Positions 1 to 50,624 of a stretch of DNA of 64,000 bases are shown piece after piece. Position 1 is the stretch's first letter, and every line of letters begins with the position of its first letter. The position numbers and the translations under genes were made by a program. The notes beneath the pieces were generated by a model. It did no database searches. It saw nothing but the letters and a program-made list of their open reading frames with translations, and had not been told where the DNA came from. The stretch covers positions 729,297-793,296 of the forward strand of contig NW_024881521.1 in assembly GCF_019059575.1 (NCBI RefSeq). Reading direction: 5' to 3'. The stretch comes from Amphibalanus amphitrite (Eukaryota).

Positions 1-3000
1 GTCAGTTCTGACAGTCCGAGCGGCCGCGGGGTTTCATCTTGCTGTGCTGGCACGCCGGGCGGCCGTGGGGCCATTGGGTCGCCTAAGCCGGTGCTGGCAG
101 GCCGGGGAGCCTTGGGGTCCCTCCTGTCGGTGCTGGCAGGTCGGGCGGCCTTGGGGTCGCCCCTGTTGGTGCTGGGAGGTCGGGCATGCCTAGCGGCCTT
201 TGGGTCGCCTCTTCTGGTGCTGGCAGGTCGGGCAAGCCGGGCGGTCGTGGGGGTCACCTCTGCCGGTGCTGGCGGGTCGGGTGGCCGTGGGGTCGCTTTG
301 TTTCGTGCTGGCAGGCCGGGCGGCCATGTTTTCGTCCCTGTCAGTTCTGACAGTCCGCGCAGTCGCGGGGTTTCATCTGTCTGTGCTGGCAGGCCGAACA
401 GGCCGGACGGCCTTGGGGTAGCCTCTGCCGTAGCTGGCAGGCCGGGCAGCCGTGGGGTCGCCTCTGCCGGTGCTGGCAGGTCGGGCAGGCCGGGCGGCCA
501 CGTTGTCGCCTCTGCCGGTGCTGGCAGGCCGGACGGCCTTGGGGTAGCCTCTGCCGTAGCTGGCAGGCCGGGCAATTCGGGCGGCCGTGGGGTCGCCTCC
601 GCCGGTGCTGCAAGACCAAGTGGCCGTGGGGTCGCCTCCTTGGGTGCTGGCAGGTCAGGCTTCCTTGGGGTTGCCCCTGTCGGTGCTGGGAGGTCGGGCA
701 GGCCGGGCGGCCACGTTGTCGGCTGTCGCCCATGTTGGTGCTGGGAGGTCGGGAAGCCTGGCGGCCTTTGGGTCGCCTCTTCTGGTGCTGGCAGGTCGGG
801 CAAGCCGGGCGGCCGTGGGGTCACCTCTGCCGATGCTGGCGGGTCAGGCGGCCGTGGGGTCGTCGTTGCCGGTGCTGGCAGGCCGGGAGGGCGTGGGCTC
901 AACTCTGCCGGTGCTGGCAGGTCGGGCGGCCGTGGGGTCGCCTCATTTCGTGCTGGCAGGCCGGGTGGCCACGTTTTCGCCTCTGTCAGTTCTGACAGTC
1001 CGAGCGGCCGCGGGGTTTCATCTTGCTGTGCTGGCACGCCGGGCGGCCGTGGGGCCATTGGGTCGCCTAAGCCGGTGCTGGCAGGCCGGGGAGCCTTGGG
1101 GTCCCTCCTGTCGGTGCTGGCAGGTCGGGCGGCCTTGGGGTCGCCCCTGTTGGTGCTGGGAGGTCGGGCATGCCTAGCGGCCTTTGGGTCGCCTCTTCTG
1201 GTGCTGGCAGGTCGGGCAAGCCGGGCGGTCGTGGGGGTCACCTCTGCCGGTGCTGGCGGGTCGGGTGGCCGTGGGGTCGCTTTGTTTCGTGCTGGCAGGC
1301 CGGGCGGCCATGTTTTCGTCCCTGTCAGTTCTGACAGTCCGCGCAGTCGCGGGGTTTCATCTGTCTGTGCTGGCAGGCCGAACAGGCCGGACGGCCTTGG
1401 GGTAGCCTCTGCCGTAGCTGGCAGGCCGGGCAGCCGTGGGGTCGCCTCTGCCGGTGCTGGCAGGTCGGGCAGGCCGGGCGGCCACGTTGTCGCCTCTGCC
1501 GGTGCTGGCAGGCCGGACGGCCTTGGGGTAGCCTCTGCCGTAGCTGGCAGGCCGGGCAATTCGGGCGGCCGTGGGGTCGCCTCCGCCGGTGCTGCAAGAC
1601 CAAGTGGCCGTGGGGTCGCCTCCTTGGGTGCTGGCAGGTCAGGCTTCCTTGGGGTTGCCCCTGTCGGTGCTGGGAGGTCGGGCAGGCCGGGCGGCCACGT
1701 TGTCGGCTGTCGCCCATGTTGGTGCTGGGAGGTCGGGAAGCCTGGCGGCCTTTGGGTCGCCTCTTCTGGTGCTGGCAGGTCGGGCAAGCCGGGCGGCCGT
1801 GGGGTCACCTCTGCCGATGCTGGCGGGTCAGGCGGCCGTGGGGTCGTCGTTGCCGGTGCTGGCAGGCCGGGAGGGCGTGGGCTCAACTCTGCCGGTGCTG
1901 GCAGGTCGGGCGGCCGTGGGGTCGCCTCATTTCGTGCTGGCAGGCCGGGTGGCCACGTTTTCGCCTCTGTCAGTTCTGACAGTCCGAGCGGCCGCGGGGT
2001 TTCATCTTGCTGTGCTGGCAGGCCGGGCGGCCGTGGGGCCGTTGGGTCGCCTATGCCGGTGCTGTCAGGTCGGGTAGCCTTGGGGTCACTCCTGTCGGTG
2101 CTGGCAGGTCGGGCGGTCTTGGGGTCGCCCCTGTTGGTGCTCGGAGGTCGGGCAAGCCTAGCGGCCTTTGGGTCGCCTCTTCTGGTGCTGGCAGGTCGGG
2201 CAAGCCGGGCGGTCGTGGGGGTCACCTCTGCCGGTGCTGGCGGGTCGGGTGGCCGTGGGGTCGCTTTGTTTCGTGCTGGCAGGCCGGGCGGCCATGTTTT
2301 CGTCCCTGTCAGTTCTGACAGTCCGCGCAGTCGCGGGGTTTCATCTGTCTGTGCTGGCAGGCCGAACAGGCCGGACGGCCTTGGGGTAGCCTCTGCCGTA
2401 GCTGGCAGGCCGGGCAGCCGTGGGGTCGCCTCTGCCGGTGCTGGCAGGTCGGGCAGGCCGGGCGGCCACGTCGCCTCTGCCGGTGCTGGCAGGCCGGGCA
2501 GCCGTGGGGTCACCTCTGCCGGTGCCGCAAGGCCAAGTGGCCGTGGGGTCGCCTCCTTCGGTGCTGGCAGGTCGGGCGGCCTTGGGGTCGCCCCTGTCAG
2601 TTCTGGCAGTCCTGGTGGCCGCGGGATTTCATCTGTCGGTGCTGGCAGGCCGGACAGGCCGTGCGGCCGTGGGGTCGCCTCCTTCGGTGCTGGCAGGTCA
2701 GGCTCCCTTGGGGTCGCCCCTGTCGGTGCTGGGAGGTCGGGCAGGCCGGGCGGCCACGTTGTCGGCTGTCGCCCCCGTTGGTGCTGGGAGGTCGGGAAGC
2801 CTGGCGGCCTTTGTATCGCCTCTTCTGGTGCTGGCAGGTCGGGCAAGCCGGGCGGCCGTGGGGTCACCTCTGCCGATGCTGGCGGGTCAGGCGGCCGTGG
2901 GGTCGTCTTTGCCGGTGCTGGCAGGCCGGGCGGGCGTGGGGCCGTTGGGTCGCCTATGCCGGTGCTGGCAGGTCGGGCGGCCTTGGGGTCGCTCTTGTCG

Positions 3001-3170
3001 GTGCTGGCAGGTCGGGCGGCCTTGGGGTCGCCCCTGTCGGTGCTGGCAGGTCAGGAGGCCTTGGGGTCTCGCCCCTGTCGGTGCTGGCAGGTCGGGCAAG
3101 CCGGGCGGCCGTGGGGTCACCTCTGCCGGTGCTGGCTGGCCGGGCGGCCATGTGGGGTTGGGTCGCCTCT
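1..3170. repeat. Higher-order tandem repeat: 984-bp unit x ~3.2 copies, built from 39/45/48-bp GC-rich subunits (consensus ggtgctggcaggYcgggcRgccgtggggtcgcctctgcc)
   Basis: Positions 1-60 recur at 985-1044 and ~1969-2028. ORF-track peptides from copy 1 and copy 2 are identical (200..421 = 1184..1405). Copy 3 carries small in-frame indels. Long ORFs occur in several frames on both strands, so the ORFs are not treated as coding evidence. Confidence 0.9.
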
Positions 3171-4047
3171 CTTAATGCTGGGATGTCGAAAGGTAGGTGG
3201 GAAGATCCCGCCCCTGATCGTCCTACTTCACCAGAACTCGCTCGACTCTACTCCTGATTTCACATTTTTCTTTAGCTGCACGTGGACCTTTGGTCCGTAT
3301 TTTTTTTTTTTATCGTTTCAGTCCTAAACCTCTTCAGAGACCAAGTCTGCTCCTAAAGCGCAATTTGCACACGCTTCTGATAGAGTTCACAGCGAGCATG
3401 CATCACAACAAATAAAGTAAACTATTTGATATCGCTCGTGTGGCCTTGGTCCAGGGTATGGCATGCCACCCCATACTTATCCCTACTATTTCAAGTTGGT
3501 GGTCTTGAACTTTGGTTGCTTTTATCTTACAGTTTTCCTCCATTCAAACGCCCGGATACCTACTAGAAGATATTGGTAAAACATAGAAAGGCGGCAAACG
3601 CAAGCAAGAAGGGCTTAATATATTTTTAATGCAAATTTTCCTGGCAAAATTAAACTTCTACCAAGTGTTATGCACTCACCTGAAAGGCAAAAAAGCGCAA
3701 GTGCGTAAAAGTCAGCGCGGTGATAAGCAAGAAAAGCGCAACTACTTAGTTGCGCTTTTCTTGCCTATCACATCGTCCTGACCGCTGCAGATACGCTTTT
3801 TTAATAGCTGTGTTTACGCTTTTTTTGCTTGCGGTCAGGGAGGATGAAAAACATTTACGCTTTTCTCGAAAAAGAAAATTTGATATAACTCGAAAATTAT
3901 ACGAATTTCGAAAAACGGTTTTGCAGAAAGATGGAGATTGCTATTCTCTACCTAATGGTATCAAAATCTCAAAATCGAAAAAATGCGAGTTACGCTTTTC
4001 TTGGTTGTCACGGCAGTCTTGAATAATGCAGTATCTGTTCTTTTCAG

Positions 4048-4136
4048 AATGATTTGCGCGAGTTCTGGTGTCTTCTGGACTGGGCTAACCCCGGGTGTCT
4101 CGGCACCTGTGAACAGTTCGTCAACGACTTTGTGAG
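4048..4136 (+). CDS. ERCC6L2: ERCC6L2-like SNF2 ATPase, exon a (NDLREFWCLLDWANPGCLGTCEQFVNDFV; SNF2 motif III region)
   Basis: Acceptor ttttcag|AAT at 4046-4047, donor AG|gtgagg at 4137. The peptide matches the LQNNxxELW...DWAxPGxLG region of ERCC6L2 orthologues. Confidence 0.75.
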
Positions 4137-4374: not shown

Positions 4375-4528
4375 GCCGATAGAGCGTGGTCGCCGGCGCG
4401 GTGCCGTGAAGCGGGACGTGGCCGAGTCCTGGCGGCGCCGGGAGCTGCTGGCCACAATGCGGCAGCGCTGGATGCTGCGGCGAACCAAGGCGCTCATTGC
4501 CGACCAACTGCCGAACAAGACCGACCAG
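4375..4528 (+). CDS. ERCC6L2: ERCC6L2-like exon b (RPIERGRRRGAVKRDVAESWRRRELLATMRQRWMLRRTKALIADQLPNKTDQ)
   Basis: TACTAAC branch motif at 4344-4350, acceptor ccccag|G, donor CAG|gtacgt. FLRRTK..I.DQLP.K is the SNF2 motif IV signature. Phase is continuous with exon a (AG+G=Arg). Confidence 0.85.
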
Positions 4529-4789
4529 GTACGTCAGTGTGGGGTGGAGCGGCACGGACCTGGCTAGGAGAGGGAGGAACGGAGAGGAGAGAGGACTGGG
4601 ATTTTGTTTGTTCCCAGAAATGCACTATGACCCCAAAGAGTGTTTTCTGTCCCCAGATAGTTCGTGTCTTGCTCCATCCCAAAATTAGGCACCGTACCTA
4701 CGCCCCCAGGCCCTGCTAATAGCATAGTGTGCTTCCAATTTGTAAAAGTTTACCGGTGCCCTCAAATACGGCAGCCTGTTCTGTGGTGT

Positions 4790-5023
4790 GCCATGTATTA
4801 TGTCTTTAGATGCTGTCCTGTGTTCCCTCAGATACTGTACTGTCCGCCGTCGCCGCTGTAGCGACAAGTCTACAGCGCCGTCCCCCTGTCTGCAGCTGTA
4901 TTCTGTTGTGTCTGAACATTGTGTCCTCTGTCCTCAGATAGTGTACTGTTGTGTCTGGATGCTGTGTCCTCTATCCTCAGATAGTGTACTGTTGTGTCTG
5001 AATGTAGTGTCCTCTGTCCTCAG
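4790..5023 (+). repeat. Tandem array of ~41-bp units duplicating the 3' splice site and first bases of ERCC6L2-like exon c (tgtgtcctctgtcctcagatagtgtactgttgtgtctgaa x3). A longer copy (~4823-4900) carries 60 nt of exon with an in-frame TAG.
   Basis: Direct reading shows repeated cctcagatagtgtactgt motifs upstream of the real acceptor at 5022-5023. Confidence 0.85.
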
Positions 5024-5164
5024 ATAGTGTACTGTCCGCCGTCGCCGCTGCAGCGTCAGGTCTACAGCGCCGTCCTGGACCGGCCCGATGTCCGTCTGCT
5101 GGTCCGCCGCTCCCGGCCCTGTGACTGCGGCAGCGGAAGGAGGGCGGCGCGCTGCTGCCTGAAG
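5024..5164 (+). CDS. ERCC6L2: ERCC6L2-like exon c (IVYCPPSPLQRQVYSAVLDRPDVRLLVRRSRPCDCGSGRRAARCCLK)
   Basis: Acceptor cctcag|ATA, donor AAG|gtaagg. The C.C.SG....CC motif is characteristic of ERCC6L2 (human ...EPCTCRSGQKRRNCCYK...). Confidence 0.85.
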
Positions 5165-5419: not shown

Positions 5420-5548
5420 CACGAGTCCGGTCCGGCGGCTGGAGTAGCGCTGTCTTACATGAGCCTGCTGATGAAAGTCAGCAACCACCCGTGTCTGCTG
5501 CTGCCCAGCGGGAGCGCCTCCGCTCAGCAGAACAGGATGGCCCGTCAG
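5420..5548 (+). CDS. ERCC6L2: ERCC6L2-like exon d (HESGPAAGVALSYMSLLMKVSNHPCLLLPSGSASAQQNRMARQ)
   Basis: Acceptor tttcag|CAC, donor CAG|gtaaga. Matches LSYLTVLQKVANHVALL of ERCC6L2. Confidence 0.85.
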
Positions 5549-5934
5549 GTAAGACGGGGAACGGGACAGTAGTAGTCAACCACTAACCACCCGTGTCTGC
5601 TGCTGCCCAGCGGGAGCGCCTCCGCCCAGCAGATTAGGATGGCTCGTCAGGTGAGGATATTCAGAGACATATTTGTGTGTCTATTGGGGCGCCTCCGTAA
5701 AACAGAACAAGATGGCATGACAGGTGGGAAAAGTTAGGGACGATTTTTGAGTTAGTTGCATATGTCTGCATCAAATTAGTTGGACGGCTCGGAAGAGGGA
5801 TGCCGGGGCACGCTAGATGAGGAGCAGGAACTATGTGTACTCTGAATTGTAGTCTCTAATGTCTATACATATCTGTTGTTTATGCGTGTAATGTGCCTGG
5901 CTGTTCACGTCACCTGGCCATCGCTCTGTTGCAG

Positions 5935-6036
5935 GTCTGTCAGTCGGTGTTTGACCAGTTTCCAGAGCTGGCCCGCCTCAGCCGCTCACAGGCGTATCGT
6001 GCCCTCTCCGACCCGAAATACTGCGGCAAAATGAAG
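5935..6036 (+). CDS. ERCC6L2: ERCC6L2-like exon e (VCQSVFDQFPELARLSRSQAYRALSDPKYCGKMK)
   Basis: Acceptor ttgcag|GTC, donor AAG|gtaatg. SDPKYSGKMK is conserved in ERCC6L2. Confidence 0.85.
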
Positions 6037-6118: not shown

Positions 6119-6337
6119 GGTACACTCGGGGGCAGATTGATGTTCCACCACTCCCTACCCATCGGGCTCCCATGGCTCCCGCACTGGCTGCTGTCAGTGG
6201 CAGGACTGGCAGCACTGGCATTGACAGGCAGTGCTGAGCAGTGCTGAGGGCAGGCAACACCGGCAGCAGCCACTGCTGATCCATGGGAGCCCGATGGGTA
6301 GGGAGTGGTGGAACATCAATCTGCCCCCGAGTGTACC
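6119..6337. repeat. Hairpin/foldback: perfect ~57-bp inverted arms (ggtacactcgggggcagattgatgttccaccactccctacccatcgggctcccatgg) separated by ~105 bp, inside an ERCC6L2-like intron
   Basis: Left arm 6119-6175 is the reverse complement of 6281-6337. The internal segment has further dyad symmetry. No clear TSD. Confidence 0.85.
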
Positions 6338-6471: not shown

Positions 6472-6581
6472 GTGCTGACCACCTTAATTGAGCACTTCCG
6501 TCAGAAATCTCAGAAGGTGCTGATATTCTCGTATTCCACTAGAATGCTCAAGATAATTCGGGCCTACGTATTAAATCAACA
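6472..6581 (+). CDS. ERCC6L2: ERCC6L2-like exon f (VLTTLIEHFRQKSQKVLIFSYSTRMLKIIRAYVLNQ(Q); start of helicase C domain)
   Basis: Acceptor tttgcag|GTG, donor CA|gtgagt (phase 2). KVLLFS.ST..LD is SNF2 motif IV/V context. Confidence 0.8.
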
Positions 6582-6907
6582 GTGAGTATTTCCTGGCTCT
6601 TCTTTCAACTGATTGGTTCTTCGTCGCACTACGGAACGTTTCATTGGTTCCTTCACTTGTGCGCCTTGTTTGGTTTTAGGATACAATGCAGGCATGTTTC
6701 AAAAATGAAAGATTACCTGGCTGTGTAAGGCAAGAGCACATGTCAAGCAGTTAGCTACAATATCAAATGACCAGAGCTGCTGTTGGGTGATTGATGATTC
6801 TCTTCAGAGGTTGATCGTGAACTACCACCATTTTCGGTCTCATCAGGTCACCATCACATTCTCCTGACTAATACTGTGCCCGTTTGACCTGACCCGCACC
6901 TCTCCAG

Positions 6908-7111
6908 GTTTGACCTGACCTACATTGACGGCGAGACGCCTGCCTCGGAGCGGCCGGCGCTGTGCGAGCAGTTCTGCCGCCGGCCGCAGTGGGCGGTGGC
7001 GCTAGTGTCGACCCGGGCCGGCGGCCAGGGGCTGAACATTGTGGGCGCCACGGCAGTGGTGGTGGTGGACCCCAGCTGGAACCCGGCGCACGACCTGCAG
7101 GCGCAGGACAG
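6908..7111 (+). CDS. ERCC6L2: ERCC6L2-like exon g (FDLTYIDGETPASERPALCEQFCRRPQWAVALVSTRAGGQGLNIVGATAVVVVDPSWNPAHDLQAQD(R); helicase-C motifs V-VI)
   Basis: Acceptor ctccag|G, donor AG|gtgaga. STRAGGQGLN...DPSWNPAHDLQAQDR matches the canonical SNF2 STKAGGLGLN...DPDWNP..D.QA.DR. Confidence 0.9.
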
Positions 7112-7277
7112 GTGAGAGACGGGGCTAGTACGTAACCATGGAACTTCCTCACATTTTGGCGCCGAAACCCGGCTTGTATTCGTCCAGCGTTTACTCATCC
7201 CGTCACTCAGCTCTGGTCCAGTATTTGCCCCCCGGCCATGTGATTGTGTAAGTCCGACACGGGTTGCTTGCTTACAG

Positions 7278-7365
7278 GGCGTACCGGCTGGGTCAGACCA
7301 AGGATGTGAGTGTGTTTCGACTTGTCACAGCCGGTACGATCGAGGAGAACATCTACCTCAGGCAG
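7278..7365 (+). CDS. ERCC6L2: ERCC6L2-like exon h ((R)[29 protein letters not shown])
   Basis: Acceptor cttacag|G, donor CAG|gtcagt. AYRIGQ...V.RL...GT.EE.IY.RQ is the SNF2 motif VI tail. Confidence 0.9.
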
Positions 7366-7637: not shown

Positions 7638-7836
7638 GTGTACAAGCAGCAGCTCTCCACCCTCGCCGTGGAGGGCGGTACCGGCCCGCGACTGTTCTCC
7701 GCCTCCGCCGGCCGACCGGGCCTGCAGGGGGAGCTGTTTGGGCTGCACAACTTGCTGCAGCTGCGGGCGGACGGCAGGCTGACAGAGGGGCTACTGGACT
7801 CACATAGGAGGGTGGAGAGGCTCCTTACTGCCGCCG
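7638..7836 (+). CDS. ERCC6L2: ERCC6L2-like exon i (VYKQQLSTLAVEGGTGPRLFSASAGRPGLQGELFGLHNLLQLRADGRLTEGLLDSHRRVERLLTAA). An alternative donor at 7908 lies in a tandem duplicate.
   Basis: Acceptor caacag|GTG. The peptide matches ERCC6L2 IYKQQL...QGELFGIHNLF. Donor CCG|gtgagg at 7837. A duplicated donor copy (GCTG|gtgagg) at 7909 has the same phase. Confidence 0.75.
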
Positions 7837-8234
7837 GTGAGGGGCCGACTGAGGGAGTGAGGGGCTGCTGGACCCACAGGAGGATCGAGAGGCTACTGAC
7901 GGCCGCTGGTGAGGGGCTGAGGGACGGCCTGATGGATCAGGGACAGATTGAGGCTCCAAAGAACTGCTGGACTTGGACGTAATTTCTGAGACTGGATAAT
8001 TTTTTACTGCTGGCGGTGAGACACTGGGACTGAGAACTGGACTGGCCTGGACTGGCCTGAAAGGCAGTTGACGGACTGGTCGATAGAGTAATAGTTGACT
8101 GAGAGACCGATGGACAGCTGCTTGATGGACTGGCCGTGAGTTTCGTTGCTATTGTTTCGGAAAATCACCATCTGGTTATGCGCCCCTCCCCCGTATCACC
8201 ACACTAGCCAGAACATCCCCCCATTCCCCACCAG

Positions 8235-41702: not shown

Positions 41703-44224
41703 AAAGGACAGCAGACGGCGAATAGAGCGGTTCCTAGGCACTTGAAGGTGTTTATAGGGGAAATGAGCTCCATTTTGACTCCCAGAGCGAACGATAAAAG
41801 TAGATGAATAAAGCCACGGGGTGGATGGACCCAAGAATGGACACAGGATATGTCTATAAAAAGCATGAATGAAGTCCCATGAATGAAACCACGAGTGGAA
41901 ACGATGAACACCTTTAGATAAAGGAAGTGAAACAGGATAACGAAAATACAAGCTACGAATGAGATTATCTGGTACGAATCAAGCTGATTAAACCACCCAC
42001 CGCGCCGTAGAGACAACAGCCAAAGGAGAGAGTGGGAAGATAAGAGCCTGAGTATGGAGTGATAAGAGTGGTGACTGAGAGGAGAAAGTGCAAAGCGGCG
42101 ACAAAAACCGTGCACTCGGGAATAAGTGAGGGGTCGGCTGCCGTCCGGCGGCGCCGCGCCGACCCTCGGCCATCCCGACCATCACACGACGGTACGTGAC
42201 CGAGGCCGGCGCGCCTCCACAGGATAGACCGATCAAATGGCGCTGCCGCACGGCCACCGGCGCCAAAAACGGCCACCTCGCGGCTGCAGACAGCCGGCTC
42301 GCCAAAGCCCCGCGGTAAAAACCCCCGGTAAAAAGCCCCGCCGGCCCACCAAGAAACGGCCCTCCAAAGGCTGAATGGATTCCGCGCGCCCGGGCAGCGC
42401 GTGCGAACTTTGGCGCGCCGGCCGCCACTGAGCCGAGGAAGGCTCTGGTGGGTGTGCACTGTGCGACGTCCAGTGAGTAGCCTGCACTGTGAGAGGCAGA
42501 ACTAGAGAAGGAATGAGACATAACCGGGTCATCAATCGAGACGGAAGACAATTGCGAAATAGCGAAGCTGAAGGTATTCGCAATAAAGAAACAATGCTCG
42601 AGAAGTATTCAAACAACTGCATACCTACCTTCAGGTCACTGTACTTCGTTATTGCAAAGCTAGATGGTCAAACATCCGACAAATTGCACCGAAACTTCTC
42701 CATCCGACCCACTACTCCAAACAATGTTCTTCGCTTCCATGAACCCGCCTCCCTGCCCATGTTCCCTCCCCCTCCCCCCCCCGGCGGATGTGGTCGATCC
42801 CGCACAGTCCGCTCCTCTCCCGCAGGCCGATCTGTATACGCCGCGGTGTATACAAACACGCCGCGCTGCTGCCGCTGTATACAATCCCGGCGCGGCGCTG
42901 ACCCGTCGGTATACAATCCCGGCGCACTGACGGCGCGCGCTCAGACTCCTGCTGAGAGCCGCCGATCGACGGACGTCGACACCGACAGGGGGAGGGGGGG
43001 GGGGCGGACTCTGCCCGTCGACGGGAGGCGCTCCACCTGAGTAGCGTGGGCCGCAACAGACAGGAGCTCGTCATCGATTCCTACTCGACTGATCAGTGAC
43101 GTGCACCTCACCGCGGTGGGTATTAGGGGGTCGCCGGTTATCAAAGGTCAGGAGAAGGCCGTCGATAGGTAGAAGCCAATGGTCAATGGTCAGTGGCCAA
43201 TAGCGATGATCGGTCAGTGGTCAGTGGTTGGTCCATGGCCATTGTCATCCAGCAGTTCCGCCGACCAATGACCCTCGACGTCAATCACTGTCAAGTTCAG
43301 CCGGCGTGCCGCGGTCGCCGGGTCACTATGAGCCCGCCTACCCGACGACCGGCGCCGAATCGTAATTTAATCGAGCGTCCAACACAGAGTGGTCACTGTG
43401 GCCGCTGCACAGGCTGGCCGCGCCGGAGCAAACACTAATTGGACACGAGCCCTGCAGAGCTAGCGTTGTCCGGGCGGCGGCGACGGTCGCCAGGGATCAC
43501 TGGTATGACACAACTCGCGGCGCCGTGCCGGGCCGATATGAGGGACGCAGGGGACGGTGTGACTACCTGCCGTTATTCCGGCCGGGGTCGCCGGCGCCGG
43601 TAGGAGCCGGGGACACGGAGGGCGGTCGCCGCGGCCCGCCTCCACCGCCGGCCGCCAGGAGTAGATGACATGAGCCGCGGCCGCTCGGCGTCGGCCATTT
43701 GTCTTGCTTTAATAGCGTGACGCTGCCATTTATCAGCGGCCGCGCTGGCGTGGTGTAAGCCGTGTTGAACAAACCCAGGATGGGCTCGAGTTTCGCACGG
43801 CGGACGGCGCCAGCACGCGGCACCGCTGGCGGCATTGCACACGGACTGCTTATGGACTGCTAACAGACTGCTGACTGACTGCTTACGGTCTGCTCAGAGA
43901 CTGGACTGCGGTCAAACGTCGTGAGGTAGTCTGCACGAGCTGGGTCCACCACGGCGGTAGTGTCCGCCTCACGAGGGACAGGTCACAAGACACGGCGGTC
44001 AGGTGCCATCACTCAGGTGGCCAACGAGTCAATAACGCGGAACGGAGCGGCCAGTGCGGCACGGTCATTTCCCAGACGTGCCGCATAGGTAAGCAGGGTC
44101 GGCTGTAGCCAGCATGTAAGCACCGCTGATGAACACCCAGCCAGGATGAAAGACCGCGGATTCACCAGTCAAGAAGATGGAGTAACCGGAGACAGTCTGA
44201 TAGCATCTCTGACAAAGCCTGCAT

Positions 44225-44290
44225 GGCTGTCAGCGGCCGAAACCACTCGCGTCGGCTCGTTTGTAGGGTAGGACGGCCCCTAAAAAACGC
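44225..44290 (+). repeat. 65-bp direct repeat A, copy 1 (ggctgtcagcggccgaaaccactcgcgtcggctcgtttgtagggtaggacggcccctaaaaaacgc). Copy 2 is at 44696-44762; together they flank repeat B copy 1.
   Basis: Exact repeat by direct reading. Confidence 0.9.
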
Positions 44291-44651: not shown

Positions 44652-46769
44652 GGCCCCCGTTGCCCGCGCCACTATCACCAAGCGTTCGCCTCAGTTGGCT
44701 GTCAGCGGCCGAAACCACTCGCGTCGGCTCGTTTGTAGGGTAGGACGGCCCCTAAAAAACGCCAAATACACCCAATGGAATGAAAAAGTCTTAGGCTAAG
44801 CGTCCGCTGCCCAAACCTTTCTCGATCTCTGCTGAGCAGTTAATGGTTTGACCACGAATCCGGGCACATGCCGCATGCGGAAAGGTTCCCAGTGTGTTCC
44901 GCTGGCGATGCCCGGTCTGTTATTGCGGCATGGCTCTTGGTGGTGAGTTTGGGTCGAACCCTTAGTTAGTGTGAACCGGGGCGGCGAGGGACTCCCTCCA
45001 CCCCAAGGTCGGCTCCCTTCCTGAGTCAGCTGTGACTGGACCCCATACTCCCCGCACAGTGCCGCCAGTGACTCACTGTCGACCCGCGTGGGGGCGCCGC
45101 GACCCACTAATGGAACGTGACCGTGTTCGGGGTGTTCGTTGGTCGTCTGCCTCTCGTGGCCGCCGGGGGACCAGCGGGGGAGCCGGGTCGTGCGGCGTCG
45201 GCTGGTATCAGGTTGCGGCGGGCGGCCCGTCCCGCCGCTGTCGCCTGGTTTGAGGACCGTGGCGGCCCCACTGTGGGCCTCTGTGGCCCCGCGGACGGTA
45301 CCGGCAGGCGGGCCCGCGGCTGCCCCGGCGTTGACTGTCTCATCAGCCGGTCCGGTGTCGTGGCGGTGCCGGGGCTGTGCCAGCGGCCGGCGGCCGGCTC
45401 TGGCTCCGCCGATGGCTGTCTTTTCTGACTGGCGGTCGGCGCGGGCGGCCTTGGGGGGGGGGGGGGAGGGGCGACTGTGGTTCCCGGCGGCCCAGCCTAT
45501 TTCGTTCGTTGCTATTCCGGTGTGTGTGAAGCCATGCCTGGACGCACTGCGGTCAGGGGGGGGGGGGGGTCCGATCCGATGGTTTTGTCCCCGTGTCGGT
45601 CTTGGACCCCCGTGTTCACGGCCTCGGGGTTGCGAAGTTTAGCCCGGCACGCTTCCCGGCGCCTAAACCGACGTCATCGGTGCTGGCTAAAATGGAATGC
45701 CGCGAATCTGGGATCAGTGGCCTGGTTTCGCCTTTGATATCGTGCTGCAGATTATCTAGTCGTCGGCAGCGGTCCCGTAGACCTATGTTGCGCGCAACTT
45801 AGCCGCGGCGTCGGCGGCGGACCCGGTTTACGTGCTCATACGACCGCACATACATAAATGAGGTTTGTATGGCCATGTGGCCGTGAATGACTGGTAGAAA
45901 AGGTTGTGCATGGATTCCGGTGCTGTGATGGCACCGCACGCAAAGCACAGTGCCTCACGGAAAATAGGAACGGTGCATTGTTAGCGTACTTTAAACGCAC
46001 CTACCCAGGTACCTAAGAATCACGTGCTGTTCATGAGGCCTGTGAGCACGGGCGCCGATGACTTTTCTGCCGCTCCGTTCTGGCCTGCGGGATGACGACT
46101 TGCATGCCAGCGCATGTGGGGACTCCCATTTGGCAGCTGCTCGCACGGGTTACCGTGGGTGGGCAGGGTTCGCGAAAGTGTCGGCTGCCAGCTTGCCGCA
46201 GATTGCAGTGTCGCGACGCTTACTCGGAGTCTCGAGATTGGGGAGCCGGCAGGCAGCGGCGTAGTCGGTGTAGTTGTGTCCGGGCATGATCTTGCATGCA
46301 TTTTGTCTGTGCTTGCTCGATTCCTGCACTCAGAATGCACTTTGAGAGCAGTTTGAATAAAGACTCAATTGAGCGCTGAGACCAGCCTCAAATGTGTCTG
46401 ATTTTAAACGGTTTCAGTAAGGCTTCCTAAGGGCTCATGTACCCGAATACTGGATTCAAGCGATACCGAAACTGGGGTTCGGACTAGAAACTGGTTTCAT
46501 AGTGAGACTAATTTTTTAAAAGCTTGACACCGAAAATAGGTACCGACTGAGCTCTGTTTCTGCGATCAATGGCGTTGCTCAGAAAATATTCTCAAAATGT
46601 GTGATCTGTTTTGAATCGGGGACATTAGCCCGAAACTGATCTCTGAGACCAAAAATGGAGAAACTGTTTTCTCAGTGTGTGCGGATTGTTCGTTCGGTCT
46701 CGTCTGCCACCGCTGAGCCCAGTGTTTCAGACATTGGACGAACGAAGTTCATAGTCTGTCGATAGCTAG

Positions 46770-49910: not shown

Positions 49911-50368
49911 AGGGTGGCCGGAACCAGGTGTTTTGTGTGTGTCGCGTCGCAGGTTGGGGTGCCGCGTTGCACGACCCTTCAAAGCGTGCCTACCAGGCTC
50001 CCCGGTTTCCTTTACGATTGTGTGTGCGCTTAGTATGCCTCTGAATAGATGCGCGTCAGTCGCCTGGGAACCATCCTCATGGTGGCGCCGCGTCAGTCGC
50101 CGGGCAACCATCCTCGTGGTGTCGCCGCCAAGGAACCGCACTCCGCTGTACGTACCCCCGAGCCGTGCTCGATACGCCTCACCTGCCGTGCCGGCGTTAG
50201 TGTGCCTGACCATAGAATCCTTGTAGCCGTTGGTACTCCCCACAGCTTCCCTGGCTCCCTTCTCGCTCGCTCTCCGCTCCACTCGCCGGCGGCCATGTCG
50301 GCGTTAAGGAGTGCGTGATCGGATAATCCTCGTAGCCGTTGGCACTCCACACGGATTCCTTAGCTCAC

Positions 50369-50624
50369 TTCTCGCCCACTCTCTGCTCCACTCGCCGTCC
50401 GTCGCAGTCGACGACTGCCGTTCGCGCCTCTCGGCTCTGCTGCCAGCGGCGCGCCCGTTCCTACACTCCCCTTCGCACCACCCCTAGTCAGGGTCTGCTC
50501 CGCGTCTGTCGGCGGGGTGATTTATCTGTCTCCGACCCCCGTCTCCCTTTGCTCCGGTCACGTTCAGTGGCGCCCGGGCAGGGTCCTAACCTTCCATAGC
50601 CGCGTCGCCGCTATGAGTTGATTA
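50369..50624 (+). repeat. Dispersed repeat B, copy 2 (256 bp), same orientation as copy 1; a partial extra copy of its 5' end lies at ~50215-50290
   Basis: See copy 1. Confidence 0.9.

Follow-up and report, generated by a model that had tools for sequence, protein, structure and literature searches.

Results

The window, by which we mean the whole 64,000-nt stretch of DNA analyzed, has a GC content of 58%, and between 4048 and 9590 its + strand carries a run of GC-rich exons (~70% GC) separated by lower-GC GT-AG introns. Nine exons were modelled with GT-AG borders, all on the + strand, and when joined they give a single open frame: exon a (4048-4136), b (4375-4528), c (5024-5164), d (5420-5548), e (5935-6036), f (6472-6581), g (6908-7111), h (7278-7365) and i (7638-7836). 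Exon b ends in ...LPNKTDQ and is followed by a donor GT at 4529-4530. Intron b/c (4529-5023) is 495 nt long, and exon c, which is 141 nt, in phase 0 and 71% GC, encodes IVYCPPSPLQRQVYSAVLDRPDVRLLVRRSRPCDCGSGRRAARCCLK, including the conserved CDCGSG motif. The predicted product contains Pfam SNF2-rel_dom (PF00176, E 2.6e-16) and Helicase_C (PF00271, E 1.6e-19) domains, and the best named matches in a protein search were ERCC-6-like 2 (ERCC6L2) or RAD26-like proteins at 44-47% identity, with named animal relatives in Branchiostoma, Lottia, birds, Trichoplax and Amphimedon. We annotate the host gene as a predicted SNF2 DNA-repair helicase of the ERCC6L2/RAD26-like type. In protein searches of sequence collections nothing from the species of the window was recovered, whether a spliced product or any other protein, and an Rfam scan of the window gave no match.

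Two related loci were found by searching with exons b-d alone. The closer, L001, is a 13.5-kb ENA contig encoding a partial protein 90% identical to that of the window, and it represents the orthologous locus in a related species. Seven of the exons can be aligned to it without gaps, at 79-89% nucleotide identity, among them exon b (86% identical to L001 8533-8691) and exon c (84% identical to L001 8868-9008, and of equal length). Over 295 codons the comparison gave a dN of 0.07, a dS of 0.58 and a dN/dS of 0.12, values which indicate that the gene is under purifying selection and hence that productive splicing has been maintained. The second relative, L002, is a Logan contig whose partial protein is 67% identical and which is more distant. 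Exons a and b are contiguous in L002 (positions 20-290), which has no a/b intron and keeps the b/c intron, so that intron presence varies within the clade; in Trichoplax the b/c intron is absent, and three other intron positions are common to it and the window gene. These shared positions, and the closest similarity of the ERCC6L2 product being to animal sequences, make the host probably an animal or a close relative. Also seen in L001 were two LINE-type reverse-transcriptase ORFs adjoining the orthologous gene (L001 521-5042). The reverse transcriptase has thousands of relatives in ENA and Logan environmental assemblies, and the host clade is abundant in environmental data. Eighty related loci recovered from metagenomes belong to distant lineages, with 37% identity over exons b-c and several of them without the intron, and are uninformative on the structure described below; a metagenome scan with the exact or degenerate exon c pattern gave 0 matches.

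Five acceptor junctions, the authentic one included, were found in intron b/c, with exon-like sequence starting at 4657, 4832, 4938, 4981 and 5024, a count that agrees with the preliminary description, in which the acceptor and the start of exon c were said to be copied four to five times. The four extra copies upstream of exon c comprise two 43-nt units, one ~106-nt duplication and one 23-nt core, and the copies lie head-to-tail and in register at spacings of 43, 43 and 106 nt. Tandem Repeats Finder reported 4903-5035 as a repeat of period 43 with 3.1 copies, 90% matches and a score of 224, so the tandem array described earlier holds, with a period of 43 nt in place of the ~41 bp first given.

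The intronic part of each 43-nt unit is 31 nt long and ends in tcctcag; the remaining 12 nt, ATAGTGTACTGT, are those with which exon c begins. Unit 1 (decoy 2; 4907-4949, + strand) has its AG at 4936-4937 and a JC distance of 0.07 to the authentic unit, unit 2 (decoy 3; 4950-4992, + strand) has its AG at 4979-4980, and unit 3 (4993-5035, + strand), with its AG at 5022-5023, holds the junction we take to be authentic, with exon c running from 5024. Decoy 1 (4814-4883, + strand; AG 4830-4831) is the upstream copy of the ~106-nt tandem duplication, and this segment matches 5008-5075 at 90% identity (E 5e-21). Its exon-like part carries an in-frame TAG at 4859-4861, as had been noted for the longest copy; that part measures 52 nt (4832-4883), shorter than the 60 nt then reported. 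Farthest upstream is an isolated acceptor core (4639-4661, + strand), which reads tctgtccccag/ATAGT at the junction and matches the authentic junction at 20 of 23 positions. The 19-mer TCCTCAGATAGTGTACTGT is exact at 4931, 4974 and 5017 and recurs at 4825 with 2 mismatches, giving four occurrences in the window against 0 expected (0/100 shuffles), and the 16-nt junction core TCTGTCCYCAGATAGT is exact at 4646-4661, where 0 were expected by chance.

All acceptor copies retain an AG and a pyrimidine tract (Y fraction 0.59-0.76 at -20 to -4), which bears out the intact signals attributed to them from the start, and all acceptors in the array read cag/ATA at the junction. A branch-like CTGAA motif lies 23 nt upstream of the authentic acceptor; in unit 2 the motif is changed to CTGGA and the pyrimidine tract is broken by one purine. 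The nearest AG above the authentic acceptor is 16 nt upstream (5007-5008). Two 9-mers that resemble each other and lie 43 nt apart bound the 43-nt unit: GTATTCTGT, from the ancestral intron, and GTGTACTGT, from the exon.

At least 192 nt (4832-5023) of the 495-nt intron come from junction duplications. We considered whether serial junction duplication could account for the whole 317-nt excess of the intron, and rejected this for the oldest step on account of the segment 4662-4800, in which we detected no homology to exon c, decoy 1, the array or the L001 intron, and which contains no dispersed repeat. The 23-nt island at 4639-4661 is the oldest acceptor copy, and the simplest guess is that it is a partial array unit set apart by later sequence change.

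Comparison with orthologous loci, which the preliminary description had put forward as a check, revealed a single acceptor in both relatives. In L001 intron b/c is 178 nt long and ends in gccctcag followed by ATCGTGTACTGT; in L002 an intron of ~241 nt lies at the same b/c position. Because both relatives have one acceptor, the array arose in the window's lineage after the split. Both long copies of the window map to one L001 segment, and the divergence among copies (JC 0.07-0.13) amounts to about 1/8 to 1/4 of the interspecies dS of 0.58, all of which indicates an array that is lineage-specific and young. The codon that has become TAG in decoy 1 is CAG in the authentic exon, in L001 and in L002, and the stop is therefore derived.

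The five acceptors differ in their predicted consequences for the protein. Acceptor 5024 alone keeps the frame open through all modelled exons. Use of acceptor 4981 would add 43 nt and that of 4938 would add 86 nt, in both cases shifting the frame; acceptor 4832 would add 192 nt in frame and meet the TAG at 4859-4861 after 9 codons, and acceptor 4657 would lead to a stop within ~10 codons. The upstream sites are thus competing acceptors that would truncate the protein, as first supposed, with stops after 6-29 extra codons that fall more than 55 nt upstream of later junctions. Six homologs, one of them from a contig without an intron at the b/c position, align through the join of exons b and c (...ADQLPxKxDx/VVFC...) with no gap. 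Reading frame and conservation together point to the last unit, at 5024, as the productive, authentic junction, and purifying selection on the protein likewise implies that this acceptor is used.

Other ways in which the array might enter an mRNA were considered. The best donor-like site in 4832-5023 scores 0.3, compared with 7.4-12.7 for the gene's real donors, which rules out a poison exon, and none of the array acceptors is directly followed by a GT, which rules out a recursive splice site. With neither a donor nor an AG/GT in the array, a decoy could act only as an alternative 3' splice site extending exon c.

The exon c acceptor is one of several duplicated junctions in this gene. When the gene region was compared with itself, all of its strong local direct repeats fell on splice junctions. 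The 3' end of exon d and its donor are present three times (5483-5725, + strand), with the real GT at 5549, a second copy with its GT at 5651 (93% identity) and a degenerate third with its GT at 5724; use of the copy 2 donor would add 102 nt containing stops, and in L001 this junction is single-copy. The 3' end of exon i and its donor are likewise present three times (7785-8020, + strand), with the real GT at 7837, a second copy with its GT at 7909 (83% identity) and a short third with its GT at 8016; exon i lies outside the comparison with L001, which ends directly after exon h. At exon g an exact 13-mer, GTTTGACCTGACC, occurs twice (6882-6920, + strand), 26 nt apart and on either side of the acceptor, so that the first 13 nt of the exon are copied into the preceding intron. 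The sequence between the copies is unlike that upstream, and it is unclear whether the pair reflects a small junction duplication or an acceptor shift.

L001 has an array of its own at a different junction of the same gene. At the exon g donor (L001 10839-10974) a 47-nt unit, made up of the last 33 nt of exon g and GTGAGATCAGATCA, is repeated 2.9 times with 96% matches and an intact CAG/GTGAGA at each junction. The corresponding junction occurs once in the window (7079-7117), and the L001 array is independent of those in the window. Taken together, the two sequences show related lineages gaining arrays at different junctions of one gene. L001 also has intron-internal arrays.

To judge how often duplications would span junctions, we used a null in which every position is equally likely to receive a unit and only units lying wholly within exons are lost to purging. 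Under this null a unit of 43-109 nt spans a junction with a probability of 0.18-0.45 per event in a short-intron gene such as this one, and the placement of three out of three strong local duplications on junctions has a P of ~0.06. A junction bias of duplication is possible and not established, and at this P value we claim no hot-spot.

Tandem repeats are frequent across the window, for which Tandem Repeats Finder returned 69 rows. The strong repeats at 27.6, 40.5, 44.2, 46.9-49.9 and 50.2 kb are satellites, a proline-rich-looking repeat or a dispersed element, and were left out of the junction statistics. Positions 1-3188, in the intron upstream of exon a, are a 3.2-kb minisatellite of 71% GC with a 39-nt unit, for which Tandem Repeats Finder gave periods of 39, 48, 87 and 126, all multiples of 3. 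Frame +0 of this segment has 0 stops in 1,066 codons, where ~19 would be expected, and one minus-strand frame has only 2; the segment has no match to the upstream exons of L001 and, rather than plain intronic satellite, may represent a repeat with coding function or a nested gene. In intron e/f a 60-nt inverted repeat (6119-6337), with arms 98% complementary and 99 nt between them, resembles a foldback or MITE-like element. The segment 44397-44630 recurs at 50368-50600 and is a dispersed element, its first copy flanked by identical 67-nt direct repeats (44224-44290 and 44696-44762) in an arrangement that looks like a small LTR-type or composite element. Between 46867 and 49904 lies a 3-kb block of satellite in which periods of 36, 45, 49 and 257 nt are nested, with the core GCCGAGGCGTCGGCGGCGGACCTGATG and with (GT)n and (TATG)n microsatellites at its borders.

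Discussion

The closest parallels to the exon c array are the junction-spanning minisatellites of amphioxus termed "mirages," a name that, according to the accounts cited, was first given to those in Adh3 (PMC3087553, PMC3902484). They have also been described in the globins BflGb6 and BflGb9, in PGBD5 and in troponin C, as both donor and acceptor types with units of 10 to ~160 nt and copies 81-100% identical, many of which keep their AG or GT, and several can occur in one gene, as in PGBD5 (PMC3087553, PMC3902484). Their copy number varies between haplotypes, and RT-PCR indicated normal splicing; the mirage of BflGb6 is of the acceptor type, combining the 3' end of an intron with the 5' part of exon 2, and has 3 or 6 units in two haplotypes (PMC3087553, PMC3902484). 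Like mirages, the array at exon c is built of head-to-tail units spanning an exon-intron boundary, and its terminal unit is the authentic junction by frame and homology. It also shows turnover, here seen between lineages only, being absent from L001 and L002 while L001 has its array at the exon g donor. By every structural criterion tested, the sequence at exon c has the form of an acceptor-side mirage. Unlike in the amphioxus cases, the host is not Branchiostoma, the B. floridae ERCC6L2 orthologue being only 47% identical to the product predicted here and the GC content of the window being 58%. What the present comparison adds to those cases is an interspecies view, in which two related lineages have gained arrays at different junctions.

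Donor-side counterparts are known from human genes, in which minisatellites have their first unit over a donor boundary, as in the 37-bp VNTR of F7 IVS7, CBS IVS13, IFI6 (6-16), LMNB2 and PDGF (PMC1557585). Their pseudo-sites copy the real one exactly or almost so, are potentially functional, and are mostly silent; their use would disrupt the frame, and in F7 functional pseudo-donors stay silent through the choice of the most upstream site (PMC1557585). The arrays at exons d and i, and that at exon g in L001, are of this donor type, like F7 IVS7, whereas the exon c array lies on the acceptor side and does not belong to it. Scanning from 5' to 3', as in F7, would if applied naively to acceptors favour a decoy, which suggests that a different selection logic, involving the branch point and the exon-body context, may operate here. 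The experiments with duplicated sites described in the human study gave conflicting results on which copy is chosen (PMC1557585), and a search of the literature on which copy of a duplicated acceptor is used yielded nothing usable.

Tandem segmental duplication is also known to create or extend introns (the Rogers model; Hellsten et al., 2011, PMC3265369; in Drosophila, PMC2891723). As in that model, duplication at exon c has supplied a second splice signal, splicing between the outermost sites would restore the mRNA, and an exon copy becomes intronic; unlike in the model, an existing intron has been lengthened (495 nt compared with 178 nt in L001) and none has been created. The array resembles NAGNAG acceptors and the poison 3' splice sites of AS-NMD in presenting alternative AGs above one exon with predicted premature-stop isoforms. 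It departs from NAGNAG acceptors in its spacing, which is 43-192 nt with complete duplicated tracts and not 3 nt, and from regulatory AS-NMD sites in that its alternative acceptors are not conserved in L001 or L002.

We interpret the array as a mirage-type minisatellite, the near-neutral product of slippage-type duplication with no evolved decoy function, and assign this reading a probability of roughly 0.75. An early event would have left the 23-nt island at 4639-4661; a segment of ~106 nt (~54 nt of intron and 52 nt of exon) would then have been duplicated, and last a 43-nt segment (31 nt of intron and 12 nt of exon) would have been copied twice. Replication slippage or unequal exchange is the likely mechanism, and the short homology that already existed between GTATTCTGT and GTGTACTGT would have primed it. 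At each step the downstream copy would stay joined to the exon body and the upstream copy would be stranded in the intron, leaving the mRNA unchanged provided that splicing goes to the last acceptor (AG 5022-5023), and for this reason junction duplications would be tolerated where exon-internal ones are purged. The stranded copies would lengthen the intron, from a length such as the 178 nt of L001 toward the present 495 nt, and then decay.

Under this near-neutral history acceptor 5024 would be the one predominantly used, and the spliceosome would pass over the decoys or make only slight use of them, any resulting products carrying a premature stop and presumably being cleared by NMD. The authentic site may win because it is contiguous with the 141-nt, 71%-GC exon body and a strong donor, and by virtue of the CTGAA 23 nt upstream, which is altered to CTGGA in the preceding unit.

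Several lines of evidence favour the near-neutral reading. The decoys would truncate the protein and only 5024 leaves an open frame, the array is absent from the relatives, and the copies are young. Duplication has recurred at the exon d and exon i donors and at exon g in L001, there are many arrays in the window, and microhomology bounds the repeated unit. Finally, uniform placement already makes junction-spanning units common (0.18-0.45). The second explanation offered in the preliminary description, that a tendency of this genome toward tandem duplication had struck a splice junction, is accordingly the one favoured, given the absence of the array from two relatives that share the intron, copies that are young relative to the species split, duplications at two donors of the same gene and an L001 array elsewhere. 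The intact AG and tract of all decoys have roughly a one-half chance of surviving ~10% divergence, and speak neither for nor against constraint. Two observations sit less comfortably with a neutral history: the 16-nt core at 4646-4661 is perfect while its flanks have no detectable homology, which is not neatly explained, and the fact that three out of three duplications lie on junctions, with a P of about 0.06, still allows for a process biased toward junctions.

The decoys might instead serve regulated unproductive splicing, diverting a share of the ERCC6L2 pre-mRNA, either constitutively or conditionally, into isoforms degraded by NMD and thereby setting the protein level. Each decoy does bring in a premature stop that precedes later junctions by more than 55 nt, the decoy acceptor signals are as good as those of the authentic site, and the human CBS and IFI6 junction minisatellites show some pseudo-site use (PMC1557585). 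Against this, neither of the relatives with this intron has the array, the young copies of the array are already decaying (the derived TAG in decoy 1; the lost CTGAA and interrupted tract of unit 2), and the presence of arrays at other junctions, with a different one in L001, points to a mutational process and not to a designed switch. Poison sites with a regulatory role are typically strongly conserved, and the genes with conserved AS-NMD switches typically encode splicing factors rather than repair helicases. The NMD-coupled regulation proposed at the outset fails the comparison with relatives that was suggested with it, the copies being absent from L001 and L002; it has gained no positive support, and we regard it as improbable. 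A role as a splicing helper or decoy exon, in which the repeats recruit U2AF/U2 and so aid the authentic acceptor, or stall spliceosomes and cause retention of intron b/c, would fit the three to four close and near-identical U2AF-type sites directly upstream of exon c, and the AG 16 nt above the authentic acceptor implies dependence on a nearby branch point within the repeat. This role seems highly improbable, since the relatives splice intron b/c with a single site and there is no conservation, and since no decoy exon can be defined in an array whose best donor-like site scores 0.3 compared with 7.4-12.7.

Two further explanations concern the origin of the copies. An assembly artefact, in which reads were mis-joined or haplotypes stacked in tandem, deserves consideration given that tandem repeats are error-prone and that one amphioxus mirage was mis-assembled in a draft genome (PMC3087553), but 7-12% of positions differ between copies and the unit lengths are unequal (106 and 43 nt), a pattern that neither stacked haplotypes nor collapsed reads would give, and L001, an independent assembly, has an equivalent structure, which together make an artefact extremely unlikely. 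Decoy 1 might alternatively be what is left of a tandemly duplicated exon, c', once spliced as a mutually exclusive or alternative exon: its acceptor is followed by 52 nt that are colinear with exon c and would translate as ILYCPPSPL*RQVYSAV. The homology, however, ends after 52 of 141 nt, there is no donor, a stop stands at codon 10, the 43-nt units hold only 12 nt of exon, and the relatives have no second exon, so that of all the explanations considered we give this one the least credence.

On its own this is a modest result, one more junction-spanning minisatellite, on the less-documented acceptor side and in a lineage that is apparently not cephalochordate. The array nevertheless matters in practice for annotation of this genome, since gene predictors and splice-aware aligners will be misled by near-identical acceptors lying 43-192 nt above the authentic one. 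The locus also offers a natural test case for how one of several complete and near-identical 3' splice sites is chosen by the spliceosome, an equivalent on the acceptor side of the F7 IVS7 donor model. The comparison also displays exon sequence turning into intron sequence (495 nt compared with 178 nt), and the finding of arrays at different junctions of one gene in two related genomes shows that gain and loss are fast.

A broader idea, which we hold to be unlikely, is that the exon-intron junctions of this lineage are preferred, rather than merely tolerated, as sites of duplication. There is room for such a preference because three out of three duplications lie on junctions, L001 has its array at a fourth junction, and the 16-nt core is intact within decayed sequence; candidate causes are the sharp step in GC content between exons (~70%) and introns (~45-50%) or exon-positioned chromatin. 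If the preference were real, much of the continuing lengthening of introns, and of the birth and death of splice sites, would be driven by junction duplication, and the stranded sites would form a standing pool of cryptic sites continually filtered by selection through NMD.
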